64,000 nucleotides of DNA from an uncultured Bacilli bacterium (lineage in GTDB: Bacteria > Bacillota_I > Bacilli_A > RF39 > UBA660). The stretch is taken from the NCBI GenBank assembly GCA_947623825.1, contig CANQHQ010000002.1, positions 10,124-74,123 on the forward strand, given 5' to 3'. Every line of letters begins with the position of its first letter. Position 1 is the first letter of the stretch. The notes beneath the pieces are model-generated. The model saw only the letters and a program-made list of their open reading frames with translations, searched no databases and had not been told where the DNA came from. The translations under genes were made by a program, and so were the position numbers. Below, one piece after another: positions 436 through 60,064 of this stretch.

Positions 436-3400
436 ATGAACCGTTTTTTTTTAAAGATTCATAAGAATTTGAAATTTGTATCTCTTGGGTTACTAGGCTT
501 TTTTATGATTTGTATGGGGCTTTTGATAAACTCATATGCTTTAAGTGAACCAGTACCCAAGATTTCTTTTTCTTCAAAAACGTTAAGTTATGAAGAGAAG
601 GAACCAGGAAGTTGGCAGGTGGAAAAGAGTGCCGAATGGATTGGATTAGGAAAAGCCAGAATTACTTTTCAAGTCGATACGGTTTTGAAGAAAAAAAATC
701 CGAATACGGATGTTATTCTAGTTCTTGATGTTTCAGCGTCTATGTCAGGAAATAAATTGAATCGAGTGAAAGAAGATTCTATTGATTTAATAGATTCGTT
801 ACTCTCGGATCCTAACAATCATGCCGCATTGATTAGTTTTGATACGGATTCGAAATTGATATCGGATTTTACTAATGATAAAGATGGTTTAATAGAAAAA
901 GTTCGTCTTCTTTCTGAAGAAGGTAATACGAATTATTATCAACCTCTTGTAGATGCGGATGAAATCTTAAAAAAGTATCAAAAGAAAGAGGATACGGATT
1001 GTGTTCTCCTATTCTTGACTGATGGGTATCCTAATGTTGATGTTCCAAATCAAATCGGAGAATATTACTATTTGAAGACAGCTTACCCATGGTTAAATAT
1101 TCATGGAATTCAGTATGAAATGGGAAAAGAAATATTGGATCCAATTAAAGCAATTAGTGACAAACAATTCATTGCGGATATGATTACATTGAGAAATGCT
1201 TTAGTTGATGCCTCTGTTGTGCCGACTCTTTATGATAATTTTATATTAACGGATTGGATTAATAATGACTATTTTGATTTAAAAGATGTTTTGAATATTC
1301 AACCTTCTTTTGGAACAGTAAAATTAGAAGATGATAATGGAGTACCCAAAGTCACATGGGATTTGAGTGGTTTAGGATCAGGTCAGAAGGTTACTTTAAC
1401 GATAGATGTTGAATTAAAGGACAATTCTTATACGGGAAGTGAAATTAATCCAACGAATAAGAAGAGTAACGTCGTTTCTCAAATAGAAGAGGATGAAGAA
1501 GATACTACGGTAACCAACAGTCCAAGCTTAAAAACACATTATAAAGTAATTTATGATGGAAACGTACCAGATGGATGCCGTGTGGATAAGGTACCTGAAG
1601 TAAAAGAGTATGCTGTATATGAGACAGTTGGAAAACATGATGATGTTTTAACTTGTGAGGGATATCAATTCAAAGGTTGGAGAATTGCTACGGACGGGGT
1701 AGGAATTATTAATGATGATTATTTCAAAATGCCAGAGAAAGATGTGACGATTAAGGCAGAATGGGGAAAAATGGGTCTATCAAAAACTATGGATGGGACT
1801 GTTTATAGAGAAATTAGACCGATAATACAAAAAATAGGTGTTGATGGTTATGAAGGTGAGTTGTGGCAATATAAAGAATCTATTACAAAGATAGTAATCG
1901 AAGGAGAGCAAACAACGAAAGATGGTTCTACGGATGAACTTACCTGGGATATTTCGGAAGCCAAAGATGGTTCTGTTCGTGGATTATTGATACCGAATCC
2001 AGAAGACCCTTCTACTTATACTGCTTACATTCAAGGATTAGGTGGAAAAGTAATTGCAAATCCGAATAGTTCTTATTTGTTTGGCGGTGGAGATGGATAT
2101 TCTAATTCATTTTTAAAACTAACCACAATTGAGGGATTAGAATTATTAAATACTTCCCAAGTAACCAATATGAGTCATATGTTTTATAGTTGCGAACCCT
2201 TAATTAGTGTTGGAAATCTAAATGGCTGGGACACTAGTAAAGTAGTAAATATGGACTTTATGTTTCAAGGTTGTCATTCTTTAATAGATTTAAATTTTAT
2301 TAGTGAATGGAATACAAGTCAAGTAACGAATATGAGTCAGATGTTTGATGGTTGTCGTGCTTTGACAAGTTTGGAAGCTATTAGAGAATGGGATACGAGT
2401 CAGGTTACCGATATGAGTTATATGTTTGCTTACTGTTATGCTTTAACAAGTTTGGAAGCTATCAGTGAATGGGACACAAGTCAAGTAACTAATATGAGTA
2501 ATATGTTTTATAGCTGTGATTCTATTGAAAGTCTCGAAGGTATTAGCAAATGGGACACAAGACAAGTATTAGATATGAGTGGTATGTTTATTAACTGTAG
2601 TTTTGAAAGTCTTGAAAGTATTAGCGGATGGGACACAGCTCGAGTAACCAATATGAGTTATATGTTTTCTGGCTGTAATTTTATTGAGAGTCTTGAAAGT
2701 ATCAGCGGATGGGATACAAGTCAAGTAACCAATATGCAGAATATGTTTGAAGAATGTGGTTCTCTAACGGATTTGGAAGGTATCAAGGGATGGAATATGA
2801 GTCATGTAACGAATATGAGTTATATGTTTTCAAAGTGCTATTCCTTATTTGATGTAGATTTGAGTAACTGGAATACTCTCAGTGCGGTAAATATGAGTTA
2901 CTTGTTTTCTAATTGTAATTTTTTAAGAAACTTAAATTTGAGTGGATTGAAAACCGGTCAAGTAACCGATATGCGTTCTATGTTTGAAGAATGTAAAGCT
3001 TTGACTAGTTTGGATTTAAGTAGCTGGGATACAAGTAAAGTAGCCAATATGCGTTATATGTTTTCTGGTTGTAACACATTAACTAATTTAGATTTAAATG
3101 GATGGGACACTGGTCGAGTAACCAATATGGAAAGGATGTTTTATAATTGTATCGCCTTAATTAGTTTGGATTTGAGTGGTTGGGATATCAGTTCGGTATC
3201 AGATTGGGACTTTATGTTTTCTGGAACTACTGGTGAGTTAATCGTAAATAATTGGAAAGTTGGTTTGAGTTTAAATGAAGTTTTTTATAGTTTTAAGGGT
3301 ACCGAAATCAAGGGATTAGATACTTGGGATACAAGTCAGGTAACTGATATGAGCCAGATGTTTCTATTTTGTGATTCCTTGACTAGTATAGAGGGTTTGA

Positions 3401-6342
3401 GCGGATGGAACACAGGTCAAGTAACCAGTATGAGTCAGATGTTTTCTAGCTGTAAATCCTTAACCAGTGTGGGAGATTTAAGTCAATGGGATACGAGTCA
3501 TGTAACCAACATGTGGGAAATGTTTTCTTATTGTAAATCTATCAAATCTTTATCCTTAAGTGGTTGGAAAACAGATCAAGTAACCAGTATGGGTGATATG
3601 TTTGATAATTGTTCATCCTTAATCAGTTTAGATTTAAGCGGTTGGGACACAAGTCATGTAACCGATATGAGTAGTATGTTTATCAGTTGTGGAGCCTTGA
3701 CGAGTTTAGAAGGTATTAGTGATTGGGATACACGCCAGGTGAATAACATGCGCTCTGTTTTTTACGGTTGCCAATCCTTAGTGAAGTTAGATTTAAGTAG
3801 TTGGGATACTAGTGAAGTAACCGCCATGAATGGGATGTTTTCTGGATGTACGTCTTTAGAAAGTATCGGAAATATCGAGAGTTGGGATGTGGGTCGAGTA
3901 ACTGATATGAGTTCCATGTTTTCTGAGTGTCATTTTCTTACTACAACAATTAGTATTTTGAATCCGTTGGTAACTTCTTATTCTAAGATGTTTTATAATG
4001 CAGCGACAACCAATGGTGCCCGAATTATTGTTATTTATTCTAGCGGTTCTCTTGATTTAGTAGAGGAAATGATTGCAACTAAAAATAATGAAAACTCGAA
4101 TGTAATGAAAGGAAACCAACAAGAATATCAAAGTCATTCTATAACAATCCAGGGTAGAAATGACATTGTTTCTTCACAATCATCTGCATTCCCATATGTT
4201 GAAATTAAGTTAACGTCGAATCAGGATCATAAATTGATAACTTCCTTTGAGATGAATGGAACTCCAATGGAAGGAAATACTTTCAAGATGCCGAATAAAG
4301 ATGTGATTATTACCAATGTAACGGTTGTGGATGGATGGGAATCAGAACATAATCCGTATGGTGATAATTTGAATGAGGTCTATGAAGCAACGTTTGAAGG
4401 AGCCGGAAGTTTGACTATTATGTTACACTATTCTACAGATGAAGATTATATCTATCTATATGATCGTACTGGCAAACAATATGGGGAATATGAAGGATGG
4501 ATGAATGCGGGAGACATTATCATTATTCCGGGAGATTACGTAAAACTTAATTTTGTTACCAATGGAAGTTTCAATGAACTTTACGGTTTTCAGGCTATTA
4601 TTACTCCTAATGCACCTCATTCTGTTGAATTAAAATCTCCACCATATGATATTGGTTTGAGTAACGATTCGCCTGTATTAGGGGATACAGTGGAGTTAGT
4701 GTCACCTTCAGAAAATTATGTGGTGACATCGTTTAAAATGAATGGTACTTTGGTAGAGGGAGACTCCTTTGTGATGCCAGACGAGGATGTAGAGATTTCC
4801 GATATTATAGCAGTGAAAGGAAAAATTCTTGAGTCAGAGCATTATCCATATGGTGGTAATTTGAATGAAATCTATGAAGCAACATTGGATGGTGCGGGAA
4901 GTTTGACCGTTACTTTAGATTATCAACTCTATGGTTATGGCGATATTTATGGTGATAGTATTTATTTATATGATAAGTTAGATAACAGATATGATATAGA
5001 TGGAATTCATGACGGAACAAGTAACAGAAAAACGACAACGATCGTTATTCCAGGAGATTATGTAAAATTAAATTTTGTTACAGATGACGATTACAATAGT
5101 TATTATGGCTTTAGGGCAATTGTGATTTATAATGAATCTCATCCTATCACGGTAGAATCTCCACCGTATGATATTGTTGCTAATCAAACCTCGACTGGAT
5201 TAGGAGATACAGTGAAGTTGGTATCGCCATCTGGAAAATATGCCGTAACGTCATTTCGAATGAATGGTACTTTGGTAGAGGGAAATTCCTTTATAATGCC
5301 AGACGAACCGGTAACAATTTCAGATATTGAGGCGTTTGAAGGTGCAATTTTTGAATCGGATCATAATCCGTATAAAAATAATCTCAATGAATCATATGTG
5401 AAAAAATTTGCGGGAGCTTCTTCCTTAACAGTCACTCTAGAATACCAGACGGAAACGGACTTTGACTGGGTTTACTTATATGATAAATCCGGAGTGGAAC
5501 TTGGTAAGTATGGAGGTTCGACAAGAACAACGGAAACCATAGTGATTCCAGGAAACTATGTTAAGATTGTTTTTTATACTGATTCCGCCACGAATGCATA
5601 CTATGGATTTAAAGCGGTTATAACGGTTAATGAACCTCATTCTGTTACCCTAGAATCTTCGGTGTATGATATTGTTGCGAATAAGGAACAGACCTCATTA
5701 AAGGACACAGTAACACTGGTGTCGTCCTCTGGAAATTATAGAGTTGTATCGTTTAAAATGAATGGAAAAGAGATACAAGGAAATACGTTTGAAATGCCGG
5801 ATGAAGAAGCTAAAATTACAGATATTGTCGTAGAAAGTAGACATTCGATTGTGGTTACGGGAAATGAGGATATTGAAGCACATCCAGACTCTGCTTTTGT
5901 AGGAGATACTGTGACGTTATCATCTGTTTCTGGAAATAATCTAGTAACTTCGTTTGACATGAATGGAAGTAAGGTGGAAGGAAATTCCTTTGTGATGCCG
6001 GATGGATCCGTATCCATTTCTAACATTGTGGTAGTACAAGGCTTTGCTTTTGAATCTAGTCATAACTCCTATGACAATAATCTAAACGAAGAGTACGAAA
6101 AGACCTTTGCGGGGGCTACTTCTTTGACTGTTACCTTGGAGTATCAAACCGAAGGTATCAATTGGGATTATATTTGTTTATATGACAGAGTTGGAACAGA
6201 GCTTGGAAAGTACGGAGGACATATGAAGAAAACAGAAACGATAGTGATTCCTGGTGAATATGTGAAGATTTTATTCCATACGGATTCTTCTATCAATGAA
6301 TACTATGGCTTCAAAGCAACTATCGTTCCTAATTATGGATAA
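436..6342 (+). CDS. Giant surface protein of 1968 aa. It has an N-terminal signal-anchor TM, a vWA domain (DVILVLDVSASMSG, a DxSxS MIDAS motif), about 20 WDTSQVTNMSxMFxxC repeats (DUF285/BspA-like LRR) and four C-terminal CUB-like repeats.
   Basis: Long uninterrupted ORF with RBS GGAGG at 425-429. The MIDAS motif, the DUF285 repeat periodicity and the CUB-like repeat pattern (LNExYE..F.GA.SLT..L.YQTE...YLYD..G...G.YG.....TIVIPG.YVKL.F.TD....YGFKA) are read directly from the translation. Confidence 0.9.
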   Translation: MNRFFLKIHKNLKFVSLGLLGFFMICMGLLINSYALSEPVPKISFSSKTLSYEEKEPGSWQVEKSAEWIGLGKARITFQVDTVLKKKNPNTDVILVLDVSASMSGNKLNRVKEDSIDLIDSLLSDPNNHAALISFDTDSKLISDFTNDKDGLIEKVRLLSEEGNTNYYQPLVDADEILKKYQKKEDTDCVLLFLTDGYPNVDVPNQIGEYYYLKTAYPWLNIHGIQYEMGKEILDPIKAISDKQFIADMITLRNALVDASVVPTLYDNFILTDWINNDYFDLKDVLNIQPSFGTVKLEDDNGVPKVTWDLSGLGSGQKVTLTIDVELKDNSYTGSEINPTNKKSNVVSQIEEDEEDTTVTNSPSLKTHYKVIYDGNVPDGCRVDKVPEVKEYAVYETVGKHDDVLTCEGYQFKGWRIATDGVGIINDDYFKMPEKDVTIKAEWGKMGLSKTMDGTVYREIRPIIQKIGVDGYEGELWQYKESITKIVIEGEQTTKDGSTDELTWDISEAKDGSVRGLLIPNPEDPSTYTAYIQGLGGKVIANPNSSYLFGGGDGYSNSFLKLTTIEGLELLNTSQVTNMSHMFYSCEPLISVGNLNGWDTSKVVNMDFMFQGCHSLIDLNFISEWNTSQVTNMSQMFDGCRALTSLEAIREWDTSQVTDMSYMFAYCYALTSLEAISEWDTSQVTNMSNMFYSCDSIESLEGISKWDTRQVLDMSGMFINCSFESLESISGWDTARVTNMSYMFSGCNFIESLESISGWDTSQVTNMQNMFEECGSLTDLEGIKGWNMSHVTNMSYMFSKCYSLFDVDLSNWNTLSAVNMSYLFSNCNFLRNLNLSGLKTGQVTDMRSMFEECKALTSLDLSSWDTSKVANMRYMFSGCNTLTNLDLNGWDTGRVTNMERMFYNCIALISLDLSGWDISSVSDWDFMFSGTTGELIVNNWKVGLSLNEVFYSFKGTEIKGLDTWDTSQVTDMSQMFLFCDSLTSIEGLSGWNTGQVTSMSQMFSSCKSLTSVGDLSQWDTSHVTNMWEMFSYCKSIKSLSLSGWKTDQVTSMGDMFDNCSSLISLDLSGWDTSHVTDMSSMFISCGALTSLEGISDWDTRQVNNMRSVFYGCQSLVKLDLSSWDTSEVTAMNGMFSGCTSLESIGNIESWDVGRVTDMSSMFSECHFLTTTISILNPLVTSYSKMFYNAATTNGARIIVIYSSGSLDLVEEMIATKNNENSNVMKGNQQEYQSHSITIQGRNDIVSSQSSAFPYVEIKLTSNQDHKLITSFEMNGTPMEGNTFKMPNKDVIITNVTVVDGWESEHNPYGDNLNEVYEATFEGAGSLTIMLHYSTDEDYIYLYDRTGKQYGEYEGWMNAGDIIIIPGDYVKLNFVTNGSFNELYGFQAIITPNAPHSVELKSPPYDIGLSNDSPVLGDTVELVSPSENYVVTSFKMNGTLVEGDSFVMPDEDVEISDIIAVKGKILESEHYPYGGNLNEIYEATLDGAGSLTVTLDYQLYGYGDIYGDSIYLYDKLDNRYDIDGIHDGTSNRKTTTIVIPGDYVKLNFVTDDDYNSYYGFRAIVIYNESHPITVESPPYDIVANQTSTGLGDTVKLVSPSGKYAVTSFRMNGTLVEGNSFIMPDEPVTISDIEAFEGAIFESDHNPYKNNLNESYVKKFAGASSLTVTLEYQTETDFDWVYLYDKSGVELGKYGGSTRTTETIVIPGNYVKIVFYTDSATNAYYGFKAVITVNEPHSVTLESSVYDIVANKEQTSLKDTVTLVSSSGNYRVVSFKMNGKEIQGNTFEMPDEEAKITDIVVESRHSIVVTGNEDIEAHPDSAFVGDTVTLSSVSGNNLVTSFDMNGSKVEGNSFVMPDGSVSISNIVVVQGFAFESSHNSYDNNLNEEYEKTFAGATSLTVTLEYQTEGINWDYICLYDRVGTELGKYGGHMKKTETIVIPGEYVKILFHTDSSINEYYGFKATIVPNYG
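2158..4020 (+). repeat. Array of coding repeats, each about 72-75 bp (24-25 aa), inside gene 436-6342. They are DUF285/BspA-like leucine-rich repeats.
   Basis: The motif W[DN]TSQVT[ND]MSxMFxxCxSLxSLEGIS recurs about 20 times with similar codons. Confidence 0.7.
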
Positions 6343-6421: not shown

Positions 6422-7033
6422 ATGAAAAAAATTCCAAAGAAAAATTTAATTATTATCGCAAGTATTTGTTTTGTATGTTCTATTATATTGTTTATTTCAG
6501 CATCTTATTCTTATACGGATGGACAACTTCCTACACCGATTAGTGATGATGGAAATGTCACTTATGAATTATGTAAAAAAGATGGAACTTGTATGCCAGA
6601 AGGAAGAGTTTATGTTGGTAGAGAAGTAGGAAATATTCAAAATCATTTAGATTATACAGCCACTTATGATAGTGAAATTTCTTATGATTACGACTATTAT
6701 GTAAAAGGAAAAATTGTTTATAAAGATGGAAATGGAAATGTCGTTCATGAGGAAGAAGAAATGCTAAATGATAGTCAAAAAGTTACTGGAACTGGTACTT
6801 CTTTTCAAATTCAAAGCGAGGTTACGGTTACTTATTCTGATTATTATGAAAAGGCCAATAATTCTCTTTCCAGTCATGGAGGAGTTACGGCAGACTTAGA
6901 AATTTCCTTGGTTTTGAAAAAACTTGATATGGAAGAAGTGGTGGCGACCGTTCGTTATCCTTTGAAAGAGGATATGTTTACCGTTACGAAAGAAGTTGTT
7001 TCGAGAAGAGTTGGACAGGAAGAAAAGAAATAG
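6422..7033 (+). CDS. Membrane-anchored hypothetical protein of 203 aa, with an N-terminal TM and an extracellular domain.
   Basis: RBS GGAGGTGGAAG then ATG. Hydrophobic N-terminus (IIIASICFVCSIILFISA). No recognisable motif. Confidence 0.65.
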   Translation: MKKIPKKNLIIIASICFVCSIILFISASYSYTDGQLPTPISDDGNVTYELCKKDGTCMPEGRVYVGREVGNIQNHLDYTATYDSEISYDYDYYVKGKIVYKDGNGNVVHEEEEMLNDSQKVTGTGTSFQIQSEVTVTYSDYYEKANNSLSSHGGVTADLEISLVLKKLDMEEVVATVRYPLKEDMFTVTKEVVSRRVGQEEKK

Positions 7034-7066
7034 AAGAAGGAGGAGGAACTCCTTCTTTTCTTTGAA
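7034..7066 (+). terminator. Rho-independent terminator.
   Basis: Stem GAAGAAGGAG / CTCCTTCTTC followed by a T-rich run. Confidence 0.5.
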
Positions 7067-7092
7067 ATCCTACTTGTAACTTTTTCTTTATT

Positions 7093-8037
7093 TTGATATA
7101 TTTATATAGAATAGAAAGGATGATTTCTATGTTTAGTGAAGATCAAGTCTTAGAAAAAGTTTCCAATAAAAAACAAAAACAAATTTTAATCTTTATTATC
7201 GCAATCTGCATCTTTCTTATTGTTGTTTTATTGGTATCTATGTATTTTTATATGGATAATCAACCTTTGATTAGTTTTCCTACTTATCAGTTATCCACAG
7301 AAGAGTGGACAACGGATAATGTGATGATTGAAATTACGAATGATAGTAAGAATATTCAATCTTATTCTTTTGATGGAGGAAAAACTTGGCAAACGAATTC
7401 TACTTATGAAGTAACAGAAAATGGAGAATATGAAATTCAAGTTATGGATATAAAGAATAAGTTAAGTAAGAAGAATCTTGTTGTTGTATCGAATATTGAC
7501 CGTACTCCTCCTACGATGGTGTTTGAAAGTTCTACGACGATACAAATGGGTTCTAATTTTACTCCTTCTTATGGCGTACAAGTATCTGATAAAGAATCGG
7601 GCTTAAGTAATAATTATACAGCAGTTCCTAGTTCGATTGATACCAGTGTCGAAGGAGAATATAAAATTACTTATTCGGCATTCGATCGTGCGGGAAACTT
7701 TGTAGAAAAAGAAAGAACCATTATCGTAAAAGATATTAAAGGTAGAACGTATTATCGTTATCGTGAAGGAACGATTGAGTCTTACGAGTGTGAACCGTAT
7801 CTTTGTCGTTGTGTTTCTTCGAATCTTGCTTCTTCTACAGGAACTTGTCCTACTGGATATACTTTAAATGATGAAGGTCAATGTTGTAACACTTGTTATA
7901 AGACTTGTACGAAAACCAATTGGGGAGAATGGAGTAAGTGGGATCAAAAAAAGGTGACTGCTACTCCTACTCGTGAAGTAGAAAGTATTCTTGTTGAGGA
8001 TGGACAAGAATTAGAAGGGGTGACGGATCAACGATGA
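7093..8037 (+). CDS. Membrane-anchored protein with an Ig-like (DUF5011-like) domain and a C-terminal Cys-rich module that ends in a WGEWSKW tryptophan motif. The start may instead be at 7120 or 7129.
   Basis: TM helix ILIFIIAICIFLIVVLLVSMYF. Segment NIDRTPPTMVFESST..YGVQVSD..SG..NYTA.PSSIDTSVEGEYKITYSAFDRAGN resembles bacterial Ig-like/DUF5011 domains. There are 11 Cys in the last 90 aa. It is paralogous to the next gene. Confidence 0.7.
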   Translation: MIYLYRIERMISMFSEDQVLEKVSNKKQKQILIFIIAICIFLIVVLLVSMYFYMDNQPLISFPTYQLSTEEWTTDNVMIEITNDSKNIQSYSFDGGKTWQTNSTYEVTENGEYEIQVMDIKNKLSKKNLVVVSNIDRTPPTMVFESSTTIQMGSNFTPSYGVQVSDKESGLSNNYTAVPSSIDTSVEGEYKITYSAFDRAGNFVEKERTIIVKDIKGRTYYRYREGTIESYECEPYLCRCVSSNLASSTGTCPTGYTLNDEGQCCNTCYKTCTKTNWGEWSKWDQKKVTATPTREVESILVEDGQELEGVTDQR

Positions 8038-8933
8038 AACAGAAAGTAACGTATCAGGGCCCTATTGATCAATATGGTCGCCCTCTAGAGAATAGGGGAA
8101 ACAAGAATGGCTTGGGAGAGAATCAGAGATTAGGAACCATGATCTTCACTGCTTTGGGTATCGCTCTTATTCTTATTGTAATTGGTTTATTTGTTTATAA
8201 TTATATTTCTCAGAATCGTTTGGAGATTCCAACGGCTTCTCTTTCTACGACAGAATGGACCAATGAGTCAGTGACAGTCACTGTAGATCAAAGTCGTGGA
8301 AAAGGAAACGAATATTCTTTTGATGATGGAAAAACTTGGCAAACGCAAAATACGTTTGTGGTAGATGAAAATCAAGAATTGGTGTTACGAGTACGTAATT
8401 CCAAAGGAAAAGTAAGTAAGCCAGCGACGGTTATTGTTTCAAATATTGATAAAGAGGATCCAGAACTTTATTTTATTTCTCCTTATTATATACAGGTAGG
8501 TTCTACCTTTGATGGAAAATTGAATGTTTCTGCAGATGATTTAGGTTCTGGTATTGAAACCTATACGATTGATACTTCTCGTTTGGATATGAATGTCCCA
8601 GGTACGTATGAAGTTTCTTATCTTCTTACGGATTTGGTTGGTAATACAACAAAGAAGGTCCGTACGGTTGTCGTTCATGAGGGTGAAAAGAATTATTTTT
8701 ATCGTTCTCGTTCTGTAGAATTTGGAGAATCCGATTGTCCTTATGAATGTGAATGTGTTCCTCCTACAGATGGGCTTTGTCCCGCAGGAAAACACGTTTC
8801 AGAAGATAAGACGCAATGTTGTGAAACTTGTACGGAAAAGTGTGAACAATTTACATATGGAAATTGGTCAGAATGGAGTAGTGTACGAATGATTCCATCT
8901 AGTCAATTAGAAGTAGAAATGCGTATGGAATAG
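8034..8933 (+). CDS. Paralog of the preceding gene: TM anchor, Ig-like (DUF5011-like) domain and a Cys-rich C-terminal module with a GNWSEWS motif.
   Basis: ATG overlaps the upstream stop (ATGA). Shares FDDGKTWQT, a VSNID..PP motif and the CP..C.C...C......CC.TC..C cysteine pattern with 7093-8037. Confidence 0.7.
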   Translation: MKQKVTYQGPIDQYGRPLENRGNKNGLGENQRLGTMIFTALGIALILIVIGLFVYNYISQNRLEIPTASLSTTEWTNESVTVTVDQSRGKGNEYSFDDGKTWQTQNTFVVDENQELVLRVRNSKGKVSKPATVIVSNIDKEDPELYFISPYYIQVGSTFDGKLNVSADDLGSGIETYTIDTSRLDMNVPGTYEVSYLLTDLVGNTTKKVRTVVVHEGEKNYFYRSRSVEFGESDCPYECECVPPTDGLCPAGKHVSEDKTQCCETCTEKCEQFTYGNWSEWSSVRMIPSSQLEVEMRME

Positions 8934-8975
8934 GGGTAATCCCTTTTTCTTTTTTTTGGTAGAAAGGAGGATTCT

Positions 8976-11327
8976 ATGGACGAGTACCGGAAAGTAATGC
9001 GAATTCGTTATCATCAAAAACTTTTTGATGTTTATGTCGACGATAGGCATCGTAAGACTTTTTTAGAAGTTCGAGACGATGAAAATTTCTGTCGAAGTCT
9101 TTATCCCTATTTGGATGATTATCTTTCATTGTACGTGAAAATGAATTTTCCTTCTCATATTCTTTATTCCAAAAAATTTCGCTTTCCTAAAAAAGTCTTT
9201 TTTCGAGAAGAAAAGAAACCTACACTACGAAAAGTGGCCGGAACTTTGGGAATGGTTTTATCTTTTGAAATTTTAGGAGCGATTCTCTGTCTCAATCCTA
9301 AATTTCAAAAAAGTATGATGTCTTTTGGAACGGTTTCTTCGTTGGATGAGGAAATAGATAGGGAAATTTCTTATGATACATATGATGGTTCTATTTTTCA
9401 TATCGATGAAATCGCTTCTCTTTCTGAATTTGGAATGGAACCGGTTTCTTTTTATGAAGTACGAAAGACATTAGAAGAAAATATCAACCTTTCTCCTCGT
9501 TTTAAGGAGGAAGCCCGTCTTTTCCTTGATCGATTAGAAGAACGATTCCCACAAGTGGATCTTCGTATTTTGAATCAAAATTTAAAAAAGATGTACGATG
9601 AAATCAATCCATCTTATCCATTGAAAAGAGGAGATGGATTGATGACTGGTTCGTTTTCTCCTTCCTTGGGAAAAGTTTCTTTAGAAGAAAATTATTCTGA
9701 AATGACTGCTTTTCATGAATTGTGTCACGCCTTAAATTCTTTTATTGGAGAAATTTCTTCTTCTAGTTCTTCGGATACGTATCAGATTCATTACTTTTTC
9801 CGAAAAGATTCCTATGGAGAAAGTTTTGTGGAAAGTATGAATACGATTTTAGCGGATTATCTTTTAGCGGAAGATTGGAAGAATTATTTTACTCCTACGG
9901 AAAGAACGTATTCTTCTTATCGTAGTATTTCTTATGAAACGTATCAATTATTGAAACTATTAAAAGGGTATTCTCTTACGGATTTTGTGAATCGAAATGT
10001 GTCTTACTTCGAAGAACAATTGAAAAAAGTTCATTTAGAAGAATATATCGATTATTTAGATACTTTTTATCGTGCGGAATATACCGATATGGAAGTAGTG
10101 GATACGAAGGATTCTTTGAAAGAGGAGTTACAGCATTCTCTTTTAAAGCAAAGAATTCTTGAAGAATGTGGTGATACCGTTACGCCAACGATGGTTTATC
10201 GAATGGCAGGAGCGATTCATCTATGTGAAGACCAAAAACTTGATATTTGTAATGAAATATTAGAGGAGGATGGGCAGGTTTGGTTATTCCGAACGCCTTC
10301 TTCGCCTTTTTATGATGAGGATTCCGATTCTTATGCTTATATTTATCAGGGGGAAGAAAAGATTTTTCAAGGAAAACAGAATGATATTTATATTTACAAA
10401 AGTGTAGAAGAGAATCATACGGTTTTTCATATGGCTTATTATGAGAATGAACAAAGAAAATATTATGATTTGGTAGAAAAAAAAGAGATTGATTTTCCTT
10501 CTTCGATTCTCTATCCGATTCCGTTAAATTCCGTTTGTGGATGGTTCCATATCGATGATTCTCATTTGGATTTTAGTATGGATGTGTTAAAGGAACCTTC
10601 TTTTATCAGTTATTTGAATTCTGAAACGAGAGAGGTACGGTTATATAATCAGGATTCTTTATTGTCACGAGAAAAAGTTGATTCTTTGTATTGGTATAAA
10701 AATTTTGATTCCAAGATGCCGTATTCTTTGACTTCCTATGATTCTTTGAATGATCTTTATTGTGATTATTTTACGAAGAAACCCATTGATTATAAAAAAC
10801 TAGGACCAGTTCGTTCTTTTTGGAATACGATTTATCAGTATACAAATTTTACTTTTGAAGAAGAGGGTACTTTTTCTTCTAGTGACTCGTCTAAAACTTT
10901 AATTCAAAAAGAAAAAAACAGTTACGATTTACGAGTAGATATTCAATTATTACAGGATGTGTCTTTTCTTCATTTTTTGGATCAATGTGCCCCTATTTCG
11001 ATTAATTTTTACGATGGAAAAGAAGTCAAATACTGTTTTGATATCAATCAGATTTTCTTGTATGATGCGTCTTTACAAGGACCATCTCAAATTCGATTTG
11101 GATACTACGATTATGAATCTACTTCTGATGTTGATTTTCTAACTGGAAAACCAGTCGATGTCGATTGCCTTGGTTCCATTAAATATTTTAATGAAATCGT
11201 CGATGCAGGTAGCGAAGATTTAGAGTTTGATTTATCTTCTCTTTCGCAATATCCATTATTGGAATATTACCATTCTTCGGTAGAGGATTTTTCTCTTTCT
11301 ATTCCTAAGATCAAACAAAAAGATTAG
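8976..11327 (+). CDS. Membrane-anchored 783-aa protein with an HExxH motif (FHELCH). It is a putative zinc metallopeptidase-like protein of an unrecognised family.
   Basis: RBS AGGAGG before ATG. Single TM at about aa 88-106 (VAGTLGMVLSFEILGAILCL). HELCH is encoded at 9714-9728. Confidence 0.7.
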   Translation: MDEYRKVMRIRYHQKLFDVYVDDRHRKTFLEVRDDENFCRSLYPYLDDYLSLYVKMNFPSHILYSKKFRFPKKVFFREEKKPTLRKVAGTLGMVLSFEILGAILCLNPKFQKSMMSFGTVSSLDEEIDREISYDTYDGSIFHIDEIASLSEFGMEPVSFYEVRKTLEENINLSPRFKEEARLFLDRLEERFPQVDLRILNQNLKKMYDEINPSYPLKRGDGLMTGSFSPSLGKVSLEENYSEMTAFHELCHALNSFIGEISSSSSSDTYQIHYFFRKDSYGESFVESMNTILADYLLAEDWKNYFTPTERTYSSYRSISYETYQLLKLLKGYSLTDFVNRNVSYFEEQLKKVHLEEYIDYLDTFYRAEYTDMEVVDTKDSLKEELQHSLLKQRILEECGDTVTPTMVYRMAGAIHLCEDQKLDICNEILEEDGQVWLFRTPSSPFYDEDSDSYAYIYQGEEKIFQGKQNDIYIYKSVEENHTVFHMAYYENEQRKYYDLVEKKEIDFPSSILYPIPLNSVCGWFHIDDSHLDFSMDVLKEPSFISYLNSETREVRLYNQDSLLSREKVDSLYWYKNFDSKMPYSLTSYDSLNDLYCDYFTKKPIDYKKLGPVRSFWNTIYQYTNFTFEEEGTFSSSDSSKTLIQKEKNSYDLRVDIQLLQDVSFLHFLDQCAPISINFYDGKEVKYCFDINQIFLYDASLQGPSQIRFGYYDYESTSDVDFLTGKPVDVDCLGSIKYFNEIVDAGSEDLEFDLSSLSQYPLLEYYHSSVEDFSLSIPKIKQKD

Positions 11328-11368: not shown

Positions 11369-13051
11369 TTATTTTTTTATATCGATGATGACAGGAAGAA
11401 TAATTGGTCTTCGACCGGTGACCTCTTCCGTAAAGTTGATTAGTTCACTGATTAATTTACTTTTTAGTTCATTGATTTCGTCTTTTGTATTCGTTAGGAA
11501 ATCGTTGATGATTTCGGTAGCGGTTGTTTCAATTTGTTTAATTAATTCTTCGTTTTCGTTTACCAAAATAAATCCTCTCGTTGTAATATTTGGTTTAATG
11601 AGTAATTTTCTTTTTGAAAAATCAATATTTGCGATGACAACAAGGATTCCATCGTTAGACATCATCTTTCGATCACGAATGACAACGCCACCTACTTCTC
11701 CAATTCGATTTCCATCGACGTAGACATCTTCTCCTGATACTTTTTCTCTCGACTTGGTAATGACATGATCTTTTAATGTTAAGACATCTCCATTTTCGAG
11801 AACAAAAGTATTTTCTTTCGGAATTCCACAATCAATGGCGATATTGGCATGTTTTTTCAACATCCGGTAGTCTCCATGGAACGGCATCACATATTTTGGC
11901 ATAATCAGACGAATCATGAGTTTTAGTTCTTCTTCATTCGCATGCCCTGAAGTATGCAAATCCCCATCAAATGTACTATTTGTGAATACTTGAATTCCTT
12001 TTAAATATAATTTGTTGATTGTTTTGGCAATCGATAAGGCGTTTCCTGGAATAGGGGAAGAAGAGAAAATCACAATATCATCTGGTCTAAGTGATACTTG
12101 TTTGTGTGTTCCATCTGCAATTCTAGATAAAGCAGCCAAAGGTTCTCCTTGGGAACCGGTACATAAAACAGTAACTTCTCCTGGTTTCAATGTATTGGCT
12201 ACTTCTGGAGTGATGATTAATTCTTTATGATTGATATATCCTCCATTAATTGAAATTTGGATGTTGTTTTCCATACTTCTTCCGAAAATACAAATTTTAC
12301 GATTGTGTTTGTAACAAGTTTCAAAAATGTGTTTTAGGCGATAAATATTAGAGGCGAATGTGGCAATAATGATTCGACGATTTGGATACTGATTAAAAAT
12401 ATCCATCATTGTATCATCGACTTTGGATTCGCTAATCGACATTCCTTCATTGAGGGCATTGGTCGAGTCACTAATTAATAAATCTACTCCTCTTTTTCCT
12501 AACTCAGCCATTTTATGTAAATCAGCCATCGGTCCAATCGGAGTCAAATCAAATTTAAAGTCTCCGGTTGTGACAACACTTCCATTTGGTGTTTTTAGAT
12601 ATACACCATGAGAGTCTGGAATCGAGTGAGTGGTTCTAAAAAATTCAATTTCAAAATTCTTTAATTTAATTTTTGTTTTATCATCATACGCATAAAGATG
12701 GTCATAACGAATATTTCGGTCTTCTAATTTTAAAGCAATTAATTCCTTTGCTTGATTTGGTGCGTAAATCGCAGGGATTTCCACTGTTTGAAGTAAAAAA
12801 GGAATACTTCCGATATGATCTTCGTGACCGTGCGTAATGATTAAACATTTTATTTTGGATTGATTTTCTTTTAAAAAGGTAAAATCCGGTAGAACATAGT
12901 CAATTCCTAATAGTTCTCCTTCTGGGAAACTAATTCCCGCATCGATAATAACAATTTCGTCTCCATGCATTAAACAATACATGTTTTTTCCAACTTCGCC
13001 TAAACCACCTAAAACAATAATCTTTGTTTCAATTGGTTTATTAAACTTCAT
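11369..13051 (-). CDS. rnj: Ribonuclease J (metallo-beta-lactamase/beta-CASP RNase).
   Basis: Motif IITHGHEDHIGSIPFLL. 560 aa, which fits RNase J length. Conserved N-terminus MKFNKP..TKIIVLGGLGEVGKNMY. Confidence 0.9.
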   Translation of the reverse strand: MKFNKPIETKIIVLGGLGEVGKNMYCLMHGDEIVIIDAGISFPEGELLGIDYVLPDFTFLKENQSKIKCLIITHGHEDHIGSIPFLLQTVEIPAIYAPNQAKELIALKLEDRNIRYDHLYAYDDKTKIKLKNFEIEFFRTTHSIPDSHGVYLKTPNGSVVTTGDFKFDLTPIGPMADLHKMAELGKRGVDLLISDSTNALNEGMSISESKVDDTMMDIFNQYPNRRIIIATFASNIYRLKHIFETCYKHNRKICIFGRSMENNIQISINGGYINHKELIITPEVANTLKPGEVTVLCTGSQGEPLAALSRIADGTHKQVSLRPDDIVIFSSSPIPGNALSIAKTINKLYLKGIQVFTNSTFDGDLHTSGHANEEELKLMIRLIMPKYVMPFHGDYRMLKKHANIAIDCGIPKENTFVLENGDVLTLKDHVITKSREKVSGEDVYVDGNRIGEVGGVVIRDRKMMSNDGILVVIANIDFSKRKLLIKPNITTRGFILVNENEELIKQIETTATEIINDFLTNTKDEINELKSKLISELINFTEEVTGRRPIILPVIIDIKK

Positions 13052-13354: not shown

Positions 13355-16297
13355 ATGAAAAAAACGTTTCTTTGGATTCATAAAAGAATTGGAGTTCTTA
13401 CGATTGGTTTATTGGCTGTTTTCATGATTGGAATAGGGCTTTTGATGAATTCTTATGCCTTAAATGAACCTGTACCCAAGATTATTTTTTCATCCCAAAC
13501 GTTAAGTTATGAAGAGAATGATTCAGGAAGTTGGAAAGTTGACAAGAGTGCCGAATGGATTGGCGAAGGAAAAGCGAGAATTACCTTTCAAGTTGATACG
13601 GTTTTAAGAACAGGAAATCCAAATACAGATGTCATTTTAGTTCTTGATATTTCAGGGTCTATGTCGGGAAATAAATTAGAGCGCGTGAAACAGGATTCTA
13701 TCAATTTATTAGATTCCTTATTATCGAATCCTAATAATCAAGCAGCATTGATTACATTCGATACAGGATCAGTATTGGTATCGGATTTTACTAATGATAA
13801 GGACAGTTTAATAGGAGAGATAAATCATTTAGAAGCTATAGGAACTACTAATTATTATCAACCGCTTGTCCATGTAGATGAGATTTTAAAAGACTATTCC
13901 AAGAAAGAAGATACAGAGTGTGTTGTTTTATTCTTAACGGATGGATATCCGAATGAGGATATTCCGAATCAGATAGGAGAATACAAATATTTAAAAAGTG
14001 AATATTCATGGTTAAATATTCATGGAGTACAGTACGAAATGGGAGAAGAGGTTCTAGATCCTATCAAAAAAGTTAGTGATAAGCAATTTATTGCGGATAT
14101 GACTACGTTGAACAATGTCTTGTTTGATGCTTCTGTTCTACCTATTCCTTATGACAAGTTTATATTAACGGATTGGATTCATAATGAATATTTTGATTTA
14201 AAGGAGATTTCGAATATCCAACCTTCTTTTGGGGAAGTAAAGTTGGAAGATGATAACGGAGTACCCAAAGTGACATGGGATTTAAGCGGTTTAGTGGCAG
14301 GACAAGGTGCCACGTTAACGATAGATATTGATTTAAAAGGAGATTCTTACACAGGAAGTGAAATTAATCCAACCAACAAGAGTAGTGAAGTGGTTTCTCA
14401 AATAGATGGGGATAAAGAAGATGTTACAACAAAGGAAAGTCCTAGTTTAAAAACACATTATAAAGTGATTTACGATGGAAATGCCCCAAGTGGATGTAGT
14501 GTAGGTGAGGTACCTGAAGCAAAAGATTATGCTGTATACGAAACAGTCGGAAAAAGTGATGCAGTTCCTATTTGTGAAGGTTATCAATTTAAAGGATGGG
14601 AAATTGTAACAGAAGAAGTGAAACAACTGAATGGTGACTATTTTCAAATGCCTGAGAAAGATGTAACATTACGAGCAGAATGGGGAAGAATGGGATTATC
14701 GAAGTCTGTGGAAGGAGAAGTTTATGTCCAAAAAGATCCAATTCTTCAAAAAATAGATTCTGATAGTTATAATAAAGAACTTTGGAAATATAAAAATTCT
14801 ATTACGAAGATAGTCTTTGAAGGGGAACAGACGTCAAAAACAGGTTCTACAGAGGAACTTACTTGGGATATTTCAGAAGCAAAAGATTGGTCGGTACGAG
14901 GATTATTGGTACCGAATTCAGATGATTCTTCGACTTATACTGCCTATATTCAAGGCTTGGAAGGAAGAGTGATTGCGAACTCAGATAGTTCTTACTTATT
15001 TGGTAGCAAAAGTTCTTCTACGTCATTTACAAAGTTAACGGCAATTGAGGGACTAAAGTTATTGGATACAAGTCAAGTAACCGATATGGCTTTTATGTTT
15101 TGCCATTGTGAATCCTTAACCAGTGTTGGAAATATAAGTGGCTGGGACGTGAGACAAGTAACCGATATGGCTTATATGTTTAGTTATTGTTATGCCTTAA
15201 CCAGTTTAGATTTAAGTGGCTGGAACACAAGTCGAGTAAAAGGTATGAGTTATATGTTTATGTATTGTAAAGTCTTAACCAGTGTTGGAGGTATAAGTGG
15301 CTGGGACACACGTCAAGTAACTGCTATGTATTTTTTGTTTGATGGTTGTAGCGCCTTAAAAAGTTTAGATTTAAGTGGTTGGAATACAAGTCTAGTAACC
15401 AATATGGGTGGTATGTTTTCCAGTTGTTCATCCTTAACTAGTGTAGGAGATTTAAGTGGTTGGGAAACCGGCCAAGTAACCAATATGAGTTTTATGTTTG
15501 ATGATTGTGAAGTCTTAACCAGTGTAGGAGATATAAGTGCCTGGGACACACGTCGAGTAACCAATATGAGTTCTATGTTTACTCGGTGTTACGTTTTAAC
15601 TACAACGATTAGTATTTTAAGTAATTCGGTGGCTAGTTATGATTTGATGTTCTATTCTGCTGCTACTAAAAATAATGCCAAGATTACCGTTAATTATTCT
15701 AGTGAATCAGAAGCATTAGTGAATCAAATGATTGCAACAAAGTCTGATGGTTGTAATGTGGTAAAAGCAAGTAGTCCGTATGTGGCACATTCCGTAACGA
15801 TTCAAGGTAGAAATGACATTATTGCGACTCCATCAAATGGAATGATGTTTACCAGAATTACGTTAACTCCAATCAATGAGGATTATATGGTTACTTCATT
15901 TGAAATGAATGGAACGAAAATAGAAGGTAATACCTTTGTTATGCCGAATGGGAATGCCATGATTACGAATGTAACTACTGGAGTGGGAACAGTGTTTGAG
16001 TCTAACCATAATCCATATGATAATAACCTAGATGATGAGTATGAACATACCTTTGAAGGCGCTACTTCTTTGACCGTTACGTTGGAGTATCAAACGGAAG
16101 AACCGGATGAATCGATGTATGATTGGATTGCCTTGTATGATAGAACTGGAAAAGAGTATGGTAAATATGGAAGAGAAACAAAAACAACAGAAACCATCGT
16201 CATCTCAGGAGATTACGTTAAACTTTTATTTCATACGGATGAGTTTGTAGATGGTTACTATGGATTCAAAGCCACTGTGGTCCCAAATTATGAATAA
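13355..16297 (+). CDS. Paralogous surface protein of 980 aa: signal anchor, vWA (DVILVLDISGSMSG), about 7 DUF285-type repeats and one C-terminal CUB-like domain.
   Basis: N-terminal 560 aa is about 75% identical to gene 436-6342. Same repeat motif WDTRQVTxMxxMF. C-terminus YGFKATVVPNYE matches the C-terminus of the first paralog. Confidence 0.9.
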   Translation: MKKTFLWIHKRIGVLTIGLLAVFMIGIGLLMNSYALNEPVPKIIFSSQTLSYEENDSGSWKVDKSAEWIGEGKARITFQVDTVLRTGNPNTDVILVLDISGSMSGNKLERVKQDSINLLDSLLSNPNNQAALITFDTGSVLVSDFTNDKDSLIGEINHLEAIGTTNYYQPLVHVDEILKDYSKKEDTECVVLFLTDGYPNEDIPNQIGEYKYLKSEYSWLNIHGVQYEMGEEVLDPIKKVSDKQFIADMTTLNNVLFDASVLPIPYDKFILTDWIHNEYFDLKEISNIQPSFGEVKLEDDNGVPKVTWDLSGLVAGQGATLTIDIDLKGDSYTGSEINPTNKSSEVVSQIDGDKEDVTTKESPSLKTHYKVIYDGNAPSGCSVGEVPEAKDYAVYETVGKSDAVPICEGYQFKGWEIVTEEVKQLNGDYFQMPEKDVTLRAEWGRMGLSKSVEGEVYVQKDPILQKIDSDSYNKELWKYKNSITKIVFEGEQTSKTGSTEELTWDISEAKDWSVRGLLVPNSDDSSTYTAYIQGLEGRVIANSDSSYLFGSKSSSTSFTKLTAIEGLKLLDTSQVTDMAFMFCHCESLTSVGNISGWDVRQVTDMAYMFSYCYALTSLDLSGWNTSRVKGMSYMFMYCKVLTSVGGISGWDTRQVTAMYFLFDGCSALKSLDLSGWNTSLVTNMGGMFSSCSSLTSVGDLSGWETGQVTNMSFMFDDCEVLTSVGDISAWDTRRVTNMSSMFTRCYVLTTTISILSNSVASYDLMFYSAATKNNAKITVNYSSESEALVNQMIATKSDGCNVVKASSPYVAHSVTIQGRNDIIATPSNGMMFTRITLTPINEDYMVTSFEMNGTKIEGNTFVMPNGNAMITNVTTGVGTVFESNHNPYDNNLDDEYEHTFEGATSLTVTLEYQTEEPDESMYDWIALYDRTGKEYGKYGRETKTTETIVISGDYVKLLFHTDEFVDGYYGFKATVVPNYE

Positions 16298-24383: not shown

Positions 24384-24488
24384 GACATGTCACTAAAAAA
24401 TTTAGGAAGAAAAAACAGATTTCTAGGCGAAGAAATTAGTATACTTTTTCTTATCTGAATATGATAAAGCAGATAGGAGGAATAAAAA

Positions 24489-24707
24489 ATGTTTAGAAAT
24501 GGTTGTTACGATCGTCAGAATGAAATGAATAACACCTTCAATATGAATGGAGATAACATGTCTGTCGATGTCGATGTTTCTATGAACAATAATGAAATGG
24601 CAGGTGCTGCTCCTATGCCAATGGGAACAGTTCAAGGACCTGTTATGGAACCTATGAGAGAAAGACAGGTACATCGTACGATTATGCATGAAGTACAACA
24701 AGTGTGA
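24489..24707 (+). CDS. Small Met/Asn-rich hypothetical protein of 72 aa.
   Basis: Strong RBS AGGAGG 8 nt upstream. Composition-biased sequence with no recognisable motif. Confidence 0.45.
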   Translation: MFRNGCYDRQNEMNNTFNMNGDNMSVDVDVSMNNNEMAGAAPMPMGTVQGPVMEPMRERQVHRTIMHEVQQV

Positions 24708-24919
24708 TAATTTATGATAGACTAAAATTTGAAGATGGATAAGTACAGACTAAAGATATTTTGGTAATCAATGTTAATTTGAAAGGATAATCTATGTGAG
24801 TAATAAATATGAATTTTTTATAGCCGGTAGAGTTAGGAATAAAGAAAATATTTTCAAATGAAACAGAATTAGAAGAGTTTTTAAAAGAGTATAATAAATA
24901 GAATAATAAAAGTTAGAAA

Positions 24920-25684: not shown

Positions 25685-25691
25685 AAAAATT

Positions 25692-25742
25692 ATCATCCTA
25701 TAAATTGAAATTAAAATTTTAATATAGGATGATTTTTATTTT
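25692..25742 (+). terminator. Rho-independent terminator after the Fic gene.
   Basis: Perfect 11-bp inverted repeat ATCATCCTATA / TATAGGATGAT with a 20-nt loop, followed by TTTTATTTT. Confidence 0.55.
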
Positions 25743-25800
25743 ATTAAAATTGTAGTATTTCTTATGTTACTTCTTAATATCAATCTAGAAATTAGGATGA

Positions 25801-25872
25801 ATTTCGTAAGTACGAAATAAGAATGGTGTATACACGTGCCCTTATTATATAAGAAGAACGTGGATACACCAT
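25801..25872. repeat. Two adjacent palindromic elements: the perfect palindrome ATTTCGTAagTACGAAAT, and the imperfect inverted repeat ATGGTGTATACACG ... CGTGGATACACCAT.
   Basis: Directly visible between the Fic gene and the recombinase gene. Candidate recombinase or regulator binding sites. Confidence 0.5.
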
Positions 25873-27868: not shown

Positions 27869-28129
27869 CAAAAAAGGGCAGTCACATGTTTGTCCAATTC
27901 GTACACGTGTTATTAATCATCATGTATACCGTCATACATATCGTCCATCGTATTCTTGTTGTGAAGAGAATGTATGTAGTCAAATTCAATGTGGTTCTTG
28001 TTGTAATTTTAGATAAAAGTCGCAAGACTTTTTTCTTTTGCAGTTCTTTGTCAACTTTTGTCTAATTTCTGTAAATTACTTGTAATCTTGAAAGAATGAT
28101 TTTATTATTAAAATAGGGAAGGTGATACA

Positions 28130-60020: not shown

Positions 60021-60064
60021 TTACTATATGAATTACCATTTCTTATTTTTTATTGGGGTGAAAA

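Follow-up and report, generated by a model that had tools for sequence, protein, structure and literature searches.

Membrane proteins of uncultured gut Bacilli with an immunoglobulin-like stalk and a cysteine-rich tip that appears to be a single unit of an unannotated Firmicute extracellular repeat

In class I cytokine receptors, the F strand, the FG loop and the WSXWS motif follow one another in that order. In the thrombospondin type-1 repeat (TSR), the motif WxxWxxW lies on the first strand, and arginines of the second strand intercalate to form a Trp-Arg cation-pi ladder that is stabilised by three disulfides (PMC6954052). A preference for even numbers of cysteines is generally taken as a sign that disulfides are formed, and in most Firmicutes cysteine is kept out of exported proteins (PMC2823432). 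Here we describe two adjacent genes in a stretch of 64,000 nucleotides from an uncultured Bacilli bacterium of the RF39 lineage (GenBank assembly GCA_947623825.1, contig CANQHQ010000002.1, positions 10,124 to 74,123), hereafter the window. The genes, denoted CysA (7129-8037) and CysB (8034-8933), encode membrane proteins in which a stalk of immunoglobulin (Ig)-like domains carries a C-terminal module rich in cysteine and containing conserved arginines and tryptophans. All coordinates are those of the window, and the pair and its flanking elements are on the plus strand unless stated otherwise. An earlier reading of the same DNA, made without database searches (hereafter, the original prediction), had identified the pair as tandem paralogous membrane proteins and described densely disulfide-bonded modules as uncommon in Gram-positive surface proteins, which agrees with the published survey of exported proteins (PMC2823432). 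As shown below, the tryptophan motif of both proteins appears to belong to a repeat that is widespread in extracellular proteins of Firmicutes.

CysA (302 amino acids, aa) and CysB (299 aa) are indeed paralogs, with 36% identity over 274 aa (E 5e-53), and each has a single transmembrane (TM) segment. In both, two Ig-like domains are followed by a module of about 85 residues with the order YYRxR, Cys insert, [W/Y]GxWSxW and xEVE[T/S]. The module of CysA (residues 205-290, 7741-7998) consists of YYRYR (7750-7764), an insert with eight cysteines (C221-C260, 7789-7908) that includes an EGF-like hairpin, CPTGYTLNDEGQC (7846-7884), the W motif WGEWSKW (7921-7941) and a VE strand with the sequence TREVES (7969-7986); the segment from the W motif through TREVES (7921-7986) is the W/VET half of one repeat unit. 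In the CysB module (8691-8930), FYRSR (8697-8711), an eight-Cys insert (8736-8843), YGNWSEW (8856-8876) and QLEVEM (8904-8921) occupy the same succession. The Cys-rich strings quoted in the original prediction are present as written, along with WGEWSKW in CysA and YGNWSEWS in CysB, but the number of cysteines it gave, 10-11 in about 80 C-terminal residues, has to be lowered: there are exactly eight per module, within 40 residues in CysA and 36 residues in CysB, and a ninth cysteine of CysA sits inside the TM helix. Similarly, the proposed W-x-x-W-S-x-W ending holds for CysA but not for CysB and many orthologs, in which the first aromatic residue is tyrosine, the invariant core being W-S-x-W.

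A profile of this module, compared with 1.84 billion cluster representatives, retrieved 107 proteins at E<=1e-3. Two classes can be distinguished among them. Proteins of the first class share the TM-Ig-Ig stalk and the single module, with Cys inserts of widely differing size. Proteins of the second class match positions ~60-87 of the profile only, but do so 3-10 times per protein; these matches belong to tandem units with the consensus WGDWSDWSTTAVSASDTREVETRTVYRYRD (for example, WGxWSxWS..V..S..RxVET..YRYRD), which recur mostly with a period of 38 or 55 residues and contain few or no cysteines. The second class includes signal-peptide proteins and Hanks-type Ser/Thr kinases (P0105 and P0109, both with Pkinase matches; P numbers denote database proteins), in which the repeats make up the whole ectodomain, whereas relatives of the multi-repeat protein P0139 combine the repeat with PASTA, SLH, BspA-type leucine-rich repeat (LRR) or N-terminal zinc-ribbon anchors, with no Pfam family found over the repeat itself.

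The reverse comparison gives the same picture. A hidden Markov model (HMM) built from 839 units of multi-repeat proteins matches, among the 352 six-frame open reading frames (ORFs) of the window, only CysA (E 1.3e-8) and CysB (E 7e-6), and in both proteins the match splits into a W/VET part and a weaker YYRYR part. Alignment of the unit profile with the module profile by hhalign yields a probability of 97.4% (E 1.2e-11), and both proteins contain the triad YRxR...W-S-x-W...[VI]-E-[TS] that characterizes the repeat. Because the profile matches are significant in both directions, the W motif of CysA and CysB is, at the level of sequence, one unit of an unannotated Firmicute extracellular repeat. 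The W/VET halves are nearly identical (WGEWSEWSQEKVTATATREVET in the CysA family and WGDWSDWSTTAVSASDTREVET in the repeat), and the YRYR strand is common to both. The differences are in the setting: the tandem repeat proteins (P0139, P0101 and the Hanks kinases P0105 and P0109) contain 3-10 units compared with the single one of CysA and CysB, where a Cys-rich insert takes the place of the loop that joins R strand and W segment, and the unit is mounted on a stalk of Ig domains.

The relationship between the two halves of the unit can be gleaned from P0101 (741 aa, from a metagenome), which has eight consecutive W/VET units in its first half, an intervening region, and eight consecutive YYRYRD units near the C-terminus. 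This split arrangement suggests that each W unit pairs with one R strand, and the pairing is further supported by the correlation between the copy numbers of the W and YRxR motifs (Spearman 0.74, n=164 multi-repeat proteins). Additional gut-Firmicute proteins contain the repeat as the whole ectodomain of a Hanks kinase or together with PASTA, SLH or LRR (P0117, P0118 and P0124; P0163, P0248 and P0263; and others). Some repeat units harbour inserts of their own that contain CxxC, such as WEYYYFVCPTCGMH in P0109. Scans against Pfam and NCBIfam, which covered CysA, CysB, two neighbouring gene products (TM203 and HExxH783, see below) and the multi-repeat proteins, detected no family over the Cys insert or the W repeat. 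The family PF26918, which appears in the precomputed annotation of some of the matches, was rejected as the identity of the repeat, being present in P0090, a protein that has no W unit. In the literature, a search for bacterial repeats already described as WSXWS or Trp-Arg-ladder repeats yielded only work on eukaryotic TSR and C-mannosylation and papers on a 'cytokine-receptor motif' in a FN3 protein of Bifidobacterium, which is a different protein.

Among 5.8 billion proteins searched, 98 relatives of CysA and CysB were found, nearly all of them unnamed proteins from metagenomes and metagenome-assembled genomes (MAGs), and the few that are named are 'DUF5011 domain-containing protein [Bacilli bacterium]'; the cluster records of ten family members gave no annotation. 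The alignment of 81 of these relatives follows a single plan, namely, TM, Ig, Ig, G-R-T-Y-Y-R-x-R, x8-C1, the Cys insert, C8, x4-[WY]-G-x-W-S-x-W, x9-11-E-V-E-[TS] and the end of the protein, and ten positions do not vary: Y, R, R, C1, C8, W, S, W, V and E. Because ten residues are invariant across ~80 homolog clusters, the conservation of the module is beyond chance, and it is at least as strong as that of the Ig stalk. The insert is less constrained in number of cysteines: the B-type relatives P0082-84 keep only four. A sister family (loci L028-L036, for example, L030 9980-11356; proteins P0090-P0095) has the same TM helix and the same two N-terminal Ig-like domains (SFDGGKTWQ, NIDK..P), with two Big_2 domains and a Cys-free C-terminal domain in place of the Cys/W tip, and resides in a different genomic locus. 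Given that the stalk is shared with this Big_2-tipped, Cys-free family, the tip is the specific element of CysA and CysB. In L025, a more divergent relative, both paralogs next to the RNase J gene (3406-4500 and 4515-6278) have expanded inserts, with 14 and 32 cysteines, and both retain the cytoplasmic N-terminus MYT[DE][ED]Q. The persistence of this short N-terminal tail hints at a conserved cytoplasmic contact.

An AlphaFold2 (AF2) model obtained with the 81-sequence alignment has a predicted local distance difference test (pLDDT) score of 85 for the whole of CysA and 87.7 for the module alone. In the model of the module, two long strands (6-30 and 51-65) come first, then the W segment, which is irregular, and finally a strand spanning 82-90. 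Foldseek comparison of the whole model with the PDB yielded only generic tandem-Ig and cadherin-like matches that are uninformative with respect to the tip, and the module alone matched nothing significantly in the PDB (best E 0.33, TM-score ~0.2) or in BFVD (best E 0.09). Sequence searches of the PDB with the module profile, with P0139 and with the unit profile produced only sub-threshold matches. The original prediction was to be given up if such searches showed a known bacterial zinc-ribbon or an unrelated domain; neither the profile nor the structure searches of the module returned one.

How, then, does the module compare with the eukaryotic domains that it brings to mind? Like the bacterial unit, the TSR is small (~50-90 residues) and extracellular and combines a WxxW(S)xW segment with an RxR strand; R-x-R and W-x-x-W, the ingredients of a Trp-Arg ladder, are invariant in the bacterial family at the sequence level. 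When the unit profile is compared with the PDB, seven of the ten weak matches are TSR proteins (MIC2, F-spondin, UNC5D, properdin), at E 0.4-4 with 0.42 for the best TSR, and P0139 aligns weakly to a TSR of complement C6 (E 1.2). However, the bacterial unit has a permuted order in which the R strand precedes the W segment (YYRxR, eight cysteines, WxxWSxW); the cysteines of CysA and CysB, eight in number and 4-32 in the relatives, lie in the insert between R and W instead of forming the fixed six-Cys pattern of the TSR; and most bacterial relatives of the unit have no cysteine at all. The TSP_1 family (PF00090) was not matched by hmmscan, either by CysA and CysB at E<=1 or by the multi-repeat relatives at E<=0.1, and no TSR was among the Foldseek matches of the module. 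The original description of the W motif as TSR-like and yet not a canonical TSR is therefore apt.

The resemblance to the cytokine receptors is in part literal. The motif G-x-W-S-x-W-S is present as such (GNWSEWS in CysB, GEWSEWS in the family consensus), and a Y-x-R-x-R strand precedes it, as in the receptors. In contrast, the module has approximately three strands, compared with the seven of a fibronectin type III (FnIII) domain, the loop contains a 40-residue Cys insert, and no fn3 match was obtained for CysA and CysB (E<=1) or their relatives (E<=0.1). The third likeness is to EGF and cEGF (PF12662): the two-Cys hairpin C-P-x-G-[YF]-x-L-x4-5-C resembles the C-terminal subdomain of EGF, the second EGF domain of factor IX aligns weakly with the module profile (E 0.21), cEGF is matched in the expanded relatives at E 2e-4 to 0.5 (10.7-21.4 bits against a cut-off of 26.6), and a CC domain scores 15.2 against a cut-off of 20.6 in CysA. 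None of these matches reaches the gathering cut-off; the six-Cys pattern is missing, and inside the putative ladder unit the hairpins are found either alone or in arrays. Thus, membership in the TSR and cytokine-receptor families is rejected for CysA and CysB on these comparisons, and an analogy with them is plausible.

The part of the proteins that precedes the tip is more conventional. Each has one strongly hydrophobic segment, at residues 19-37 in CysA (7183-7239, mean hydropathy 3.6) and at residues 36-54 in CysB, as located by hydropathy (8139-8195); the AF2 model of CysA shows a helix at residues 4-43 and beta domains thereafter. The excess of lysine and arginine on the N-terminal side of this segment (four before versus none after in CysA, six versus one in CysB) indicates that both proteins are bitopic, with the N-terminus inside and the C-terminus outside. 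The first Ig-like domain of CysA (7264-7491) is modelled with beta strands at residues 53-120 at pLDDT >90, and its matches to Big_13 are sub-threshold. It contains an Asp-box-like motif, SFDGGKTWQ (7366-7392), that is invariant in the alignment of the CysA/CysB family; SFDGGKTWQ and SFDDGKTWQ fit the Asp-box pattern S-x-D-x-G-x-T-W literally and score 16.6 and 15.3 bits with the Pfam BNR family, the cut-off being 27. A conserved NID..P linker follows. The second Ig-like domain is a bona fide member of PF16403 (Bact_surface_Ig-like, formerly DUF5011), with scores above the gathering score of 27 in CysA (7525-7728, 41.5 bits, E 1.4e-10) and in CysB (8484-8675, 30.5 bits, E 3.7e-7), which bears out the DUF5011-like Ig domain of the original prediction. 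Compared with other surface proteins that contain PF16403, the TM-Ig-Ig stalk is shared by CysA, CysB and the Big_2-tipped sister family, and the distinction lies in the tip, the sister family having neither the cysteines nor the W unit.

The two genes form a same-strand pair of ORFs at 7093-8037 and 8034-8933. The CysA frame is open from a TTG at 7093, but translation probably starts at the ATG at 7129, because this codon is preceded by a ribosome-binding site (GAAAGGA), a database protein of 302 aa (P0001) is 100% identical to CysA started there, and this start lines up with the N-terminus conserved in the orthologs, M[YF]SE[ED]Q. The start codon of CysB overlaps the stop codon of CysA in the sequence ATGA (8034-8037), which suggests that the two genes are translationally coupled. 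In pairwise comparisons by the Nei-Gojobori (NG86) method, the ratio of nonsynonymous to synonymous substitution rates (dN/dS) is 0.07-0.20 for the CysA orthologs and 0.29-0.39 for those of CysB, ratios that are approximate given that dS is ~1 or above, so that CysB evolves two to three times faster than CysA; neither set of orthologs contains a single stop codon. Decay into pseudogenes, which the original prediction had named as a ground for abandoning it, is ruled out: every relative examined has intact ORFs, and dN/dS (0.07-0.39) lies well below 1.

The state of the cysteines is the first matter on which alternatives have to be weighed. Every one of the 112 single-module proteins has an even number of cysteines in the stretch from the YRxR to the W motif: four in 3 proteins, eight in 84, 12 in nine, 14 in five, 16 in one, 18 in three, 20 in three, 22 in two and 32 in two. 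The expanded inserts are arrays of two-Cys hairpins of the form C-P-x-G-[YF]-x5-8-C, with 7-10 of these in P0104 and P0106 compared with one in CysA. Because the number of cysteines is always even and yet includes 14, 18 and 22, which are not multiples of four, disulfides are favoured over zinc, and the module is probably disulfide-bonded. Of the densely disulfide-bonded extracellular module that was originally proposed, the module itself and its location outside the membrane are borne out, and the bonding is probable. The distance from C1 to C3 in CysA is seven residues, as is that from C6 to C8; the residue indices of C1 and C8 add up to the same value as those of C3 and C6 (C1+C8 = C3+C6), and C2+C7 differs by one. 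Such symmetry is expected of cross-strand pairs in one antiparallel ribbon and fits the strands 6-30 and 51-65 of the model, from which we infer the pairing C1-C8, C2-C7, C3-C6 and C4-C5.

The insert could instead hold two Zn(Cys)4 sites, akin to a zinc ribbon or knuckle (modules with paired CxxC that are usually cytoplasmic), in place of a disulfide knot, and stabilisation of the protein by zinc would suit the reducing, anaerobic gut. The CxC, CC and CxxC/CxxxC spacings of the insert are compatible with such sites, and 4, 8, 12, 16, 20 or 32 cysteines are found in most members; the proteins with 14, 18 and 22 are, however, incompatible with Zn(Cys)4 sites alone as judged from these counts, and odd counts are absent altogether. 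Although the exported proteins of anaerobic Firmicutes mostly show no even-Cys bias (PMC2823432), the insert in this family is extracytoplasmic and expands by two-Cys CPxG[YF]xxxxxC hairpins that resemble the C-terminal EGF subdomain, and no zinc-ribbon family of Pfam is matched by the proteins of the window. Zinc coordination in the insert is, accordingly, unlikely.

Taking these observations together, we favour, as fairly probable, a model in which CysA and CysB are coupled type-II (N-in) paralogs that each would project a stalk of two Ig-like domains from the membrane, ending in a small, rigid tip. The tip would be a single repeat unit, ...YRYR(D)-loop-WGxWSxWS-x3-V-x2-S-x2-R-x-VET..., in which stacking of the Arg strand (YYRxR) and the Trp segment (WSxW) most likely gives rise to a cation-pi Trp-Arg ladder, an analog of those of TSR and WSXWS. 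The Cys-rich insert that appears to stand in for the R-to-W loop would form a two-stranded ribbon with three cross-strand disulfides, capped by an EGF-like, disulfide-closed hairpin, CPxGYxLxxxxC. In B-type relatives, loss or multiplication of hairpins would account for inserts that range from four to 32 cysteines. CysA and CysB may form a heterodimer. The stalk would present the ladder and the hairpin in or through the cell wall, where the tip, as our best guess, binds an envelope or glycan ligand, given that many Hanks kinases have this repeat as their only ectodomain and that it is also found together with PASTA and SLH. A strain-variable host adhesin is argued against by the single-copy, syntenic CysA gene under purifying selection. 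The faster evolution of CysB, along with its insert of 4-32 cysteines, is, as far as sequence goes, the behaviour of a tunable tip or spacer.

The main functional alternative to a ligand-binding tip is that the proteins are passive envelope struts or spacers, ligand-free rigid rods of fixed length, with the variable insert of CysB tuning the length. Rod-like repeats act as stalks in other Gram-positive surface proteins, and the strong purifying selection on CysA, a gene of the core genome, would be as expected of a strut. The module is elongated and beta-rich, with no match to a pocket-like fold, and the insert of CysB varies by whole hairpin units. Against a merely structural role, the same repeat constitutes the entire ectodomain of many Hanks kinases, where sensing is to be expected, and conservation in the C-terminal module equals or exceeds that of the Ig stalk that it would simply extend. 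Overall, we consider the strut improbable.

The genomic context bears on a different proposal of the original prediction, namely, that the pair belongs to an accessory surface complex with its neighbours. In a survey that scanned one genome per GTDB species, the gene was found in ~24 species-level MAGs that come from the guts of humans, rabbits, chickens and mice and bear the labels Bacilli, Bacillales or 'Tenericutes'. All ~24 share a collinear order of housekeeping genes: recA, rny (RNase Y), CysA with or without CysB, rnj (RNase J, convergent) and ftsY. The rny-A(±B)-rnj arrangement is present in loci L001-L025, L081 and L083; the A+B pair is found in the closer relatives (L001-L010 and L025) and A alone in the more distant L011-L024. 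CysA and CysB are thus vertically inherited core genes of an uncultured clade of gut Bacilli.

The window preserves this frame, with the 3' end of rny at 3-272 (94% identity over 90 aa to the RNase Y of L002 by tblastn) and rnj on the minus strand at 11369-13051. Between these genes and the pair lie a gene for a protein with vWA and DUF285 domains (436-6342), upstream of CysA; a gene for a 203-aa TM protein (TM203, 6422-7033), between the latter and CysA; and a gene for a 783-aa HExxH protein with no Pfam or NCBIfam match (HExxH783, 8976-11327), which separates CysB from the convergent rnj. When the related loci were searched by tblastn (E<=1e-2) over ±10 kb around the CysA ortholog, none of the three genes had a counterpart, the only contig that shares them being the identical one, L080; they are therefore insertions specific to the genome of the window. 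In the two nearest relatives, whose CysA proteins are 84% and 78% identical, rny is directly upstream of A and rnj directly downstream of B. Consensus matches of a regulatory kind surround the pair: a palindromic terminator-like hairpin with a T-rich tract (7034-7057), which separates TM203 from CysA; a promoter-like TTGTAA-17-TATATT with a TG extension (7074-7102) upstream of CysA; and a weak terminator-like hairpin (5-bp stem) with a T-run (8932-8945) after CysB. A second vWA/DUF285 gene, of the BspA-like LRR type, is located at 13355-16297, between rnj and ftsY; L005 likewise has one between rnj and ftsY and none upstream of CysA. It appears that the intergenic regions near rny, rnj and ftsY are hot spots at which large surface-protein genes are gained.

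Under these circumstances, it is very unlikely that the pair supplies accessory subunits to a surface complex containing the vWA/DUF285 adhesin, TM203 and the HExxH protein. In the window and in the identical contig L080, all five genes are on the same strand within 11 kb, and all five products are predicted surface or membrane proteins. However, the three proposed partners are missing from the related loci (tblastn, E<=1e-2), including those of the two closest relatives, in which nothing intervenes in the order rny-A-B-rnj, terminator-like hairpins flank the pair, and the presence of the second vWA/DUF285 gene between rnj and ftsY, here and in L005, suggests that such genes simply accumulate in these intergenic sites. 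Across the related loci, the pair goes with rny and rnj and not with the vWA/DUF285, TM203 or HExxH genes; nor does the vWA protein match the Pfam CUB family (E<=1), a domain that had been attributed to it.

The weakest proposal, that the module is a true TSR or WSXWS domain acquired from a eukaryotic host for host mimicry, can draw on the literal presence of WxxWSxW and WSEWS and on the weak matches to TSRs, but is highly improbable for a motif that belongs to a widespread, mostly Cys-free bacterial repeat family, is permuted relative to the TSR (PMC6954052), comes with eight cysteines instead of six, lacks any TSP_1 or fn3 match (at E<=0.1-1) or significant PDB match throughout the family, and is inherited vertically at a fixed locus. 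The notion of a eukaryote-mimicking adhesin complex that would include the vWA and HExxH neighbours can be dropped.

Several points weigh against the ladder-and-ribbon model that we favour. The fold of the module is not anchored to any solved structure, and Foldseek is weak on small elongated domains; most of the Cys counts (4, 8, 12, 16, 20 and 32) are also multiples of four, and the host organisms are presumably strict gut anaerobes. The promoter- and terminator-like sequences around the pair are consensus matches that are no better than the shuffled expectation, and the conserved housekeeping neighbourhood is uninformative on function.

Other features of the window do not involve the pair, and scans for tRNAs and Rfam families yielded nothing that bears on it. 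A full-length OLE (ornate, large, extremophilic) RNA (Rfam RF01071, 370 bits, E 3e-105) lies at 59466-60055 on the plus strand and is followed directly on its 3' side by an ORF for a 198-aa multi-TM protein (60065-60661, plus strand), placed like the OLE-associated protein OapA; OLE RNA is thereby located in an uncultured lineage of gut Bacilli. Just downstream of ffh, an island of low GC content (24000-28000, GC 0.24-0.28 compared with ~0.34 elsewhere) encodes a protein with a Fic motif (24920-25684, HPFGDGNGRVGR) and an ORF resembling large serine recombinases (26303-27868), and is probably an integrated mobile element. Two tandem paralogous ORFs of ~600 aa each encode P-loop ATPases (17854-19704 and 19720-21474); after them, at 21478-22995, comes a membrane protein whose long tandem repeat is rich in Pro and Val (PVVETPVVA.PEVAPVPVPP), in a region where the local GC content reaches 0.44.

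The novelty of CysA and CysB is at the level of domains: the repeat has no annotation, it probably forms a Trp-Arg ladder, and in these anaerobic Bacilli it comes with an insert that is probably rich in disulfides. An extracellular module with eight, and in some relatives up to 32, cysteines, always in even number, runs against the exclusion of cysteine from the exported proteins of Firmicutes, and makes disulfide formation in anaerobic Bacilli directly testable. If the Trp-Arg ladder is real, it would be a bacterial counterpart of the TSR/WSXWS principle, whether convergent or very ancient. A bolder extension is possible although doubtful: the YRYR/WSxWS/VET unit could represent a new fold class of bacterial Trp-Arg-ladder beta-ribbons, independent of or anciently related to TSR and WSXWS, and serve as a general sensing or wall-binding repeat of Firmicutes, for instance, replacing or joining PASTA in Hanks kinases, with CysA and CysB forming a heterodimeric core envelope receptor and its four-disulfide tip implying unrecognised oxidative folding in strictly anaerobic gut Bacilli with reduced genomes. 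Whatever the fate of that extension, the repeat family, which has no Pfam, NCBIfam or PDB annotation, is present in >100 clusters (at 50% identity) of Firmicute proteins that include the ectodomains of Hanks kinases, and its definition would annotate many 'hypothetical' surface proteins of the gut microbiome and help to show what those kinases sense.

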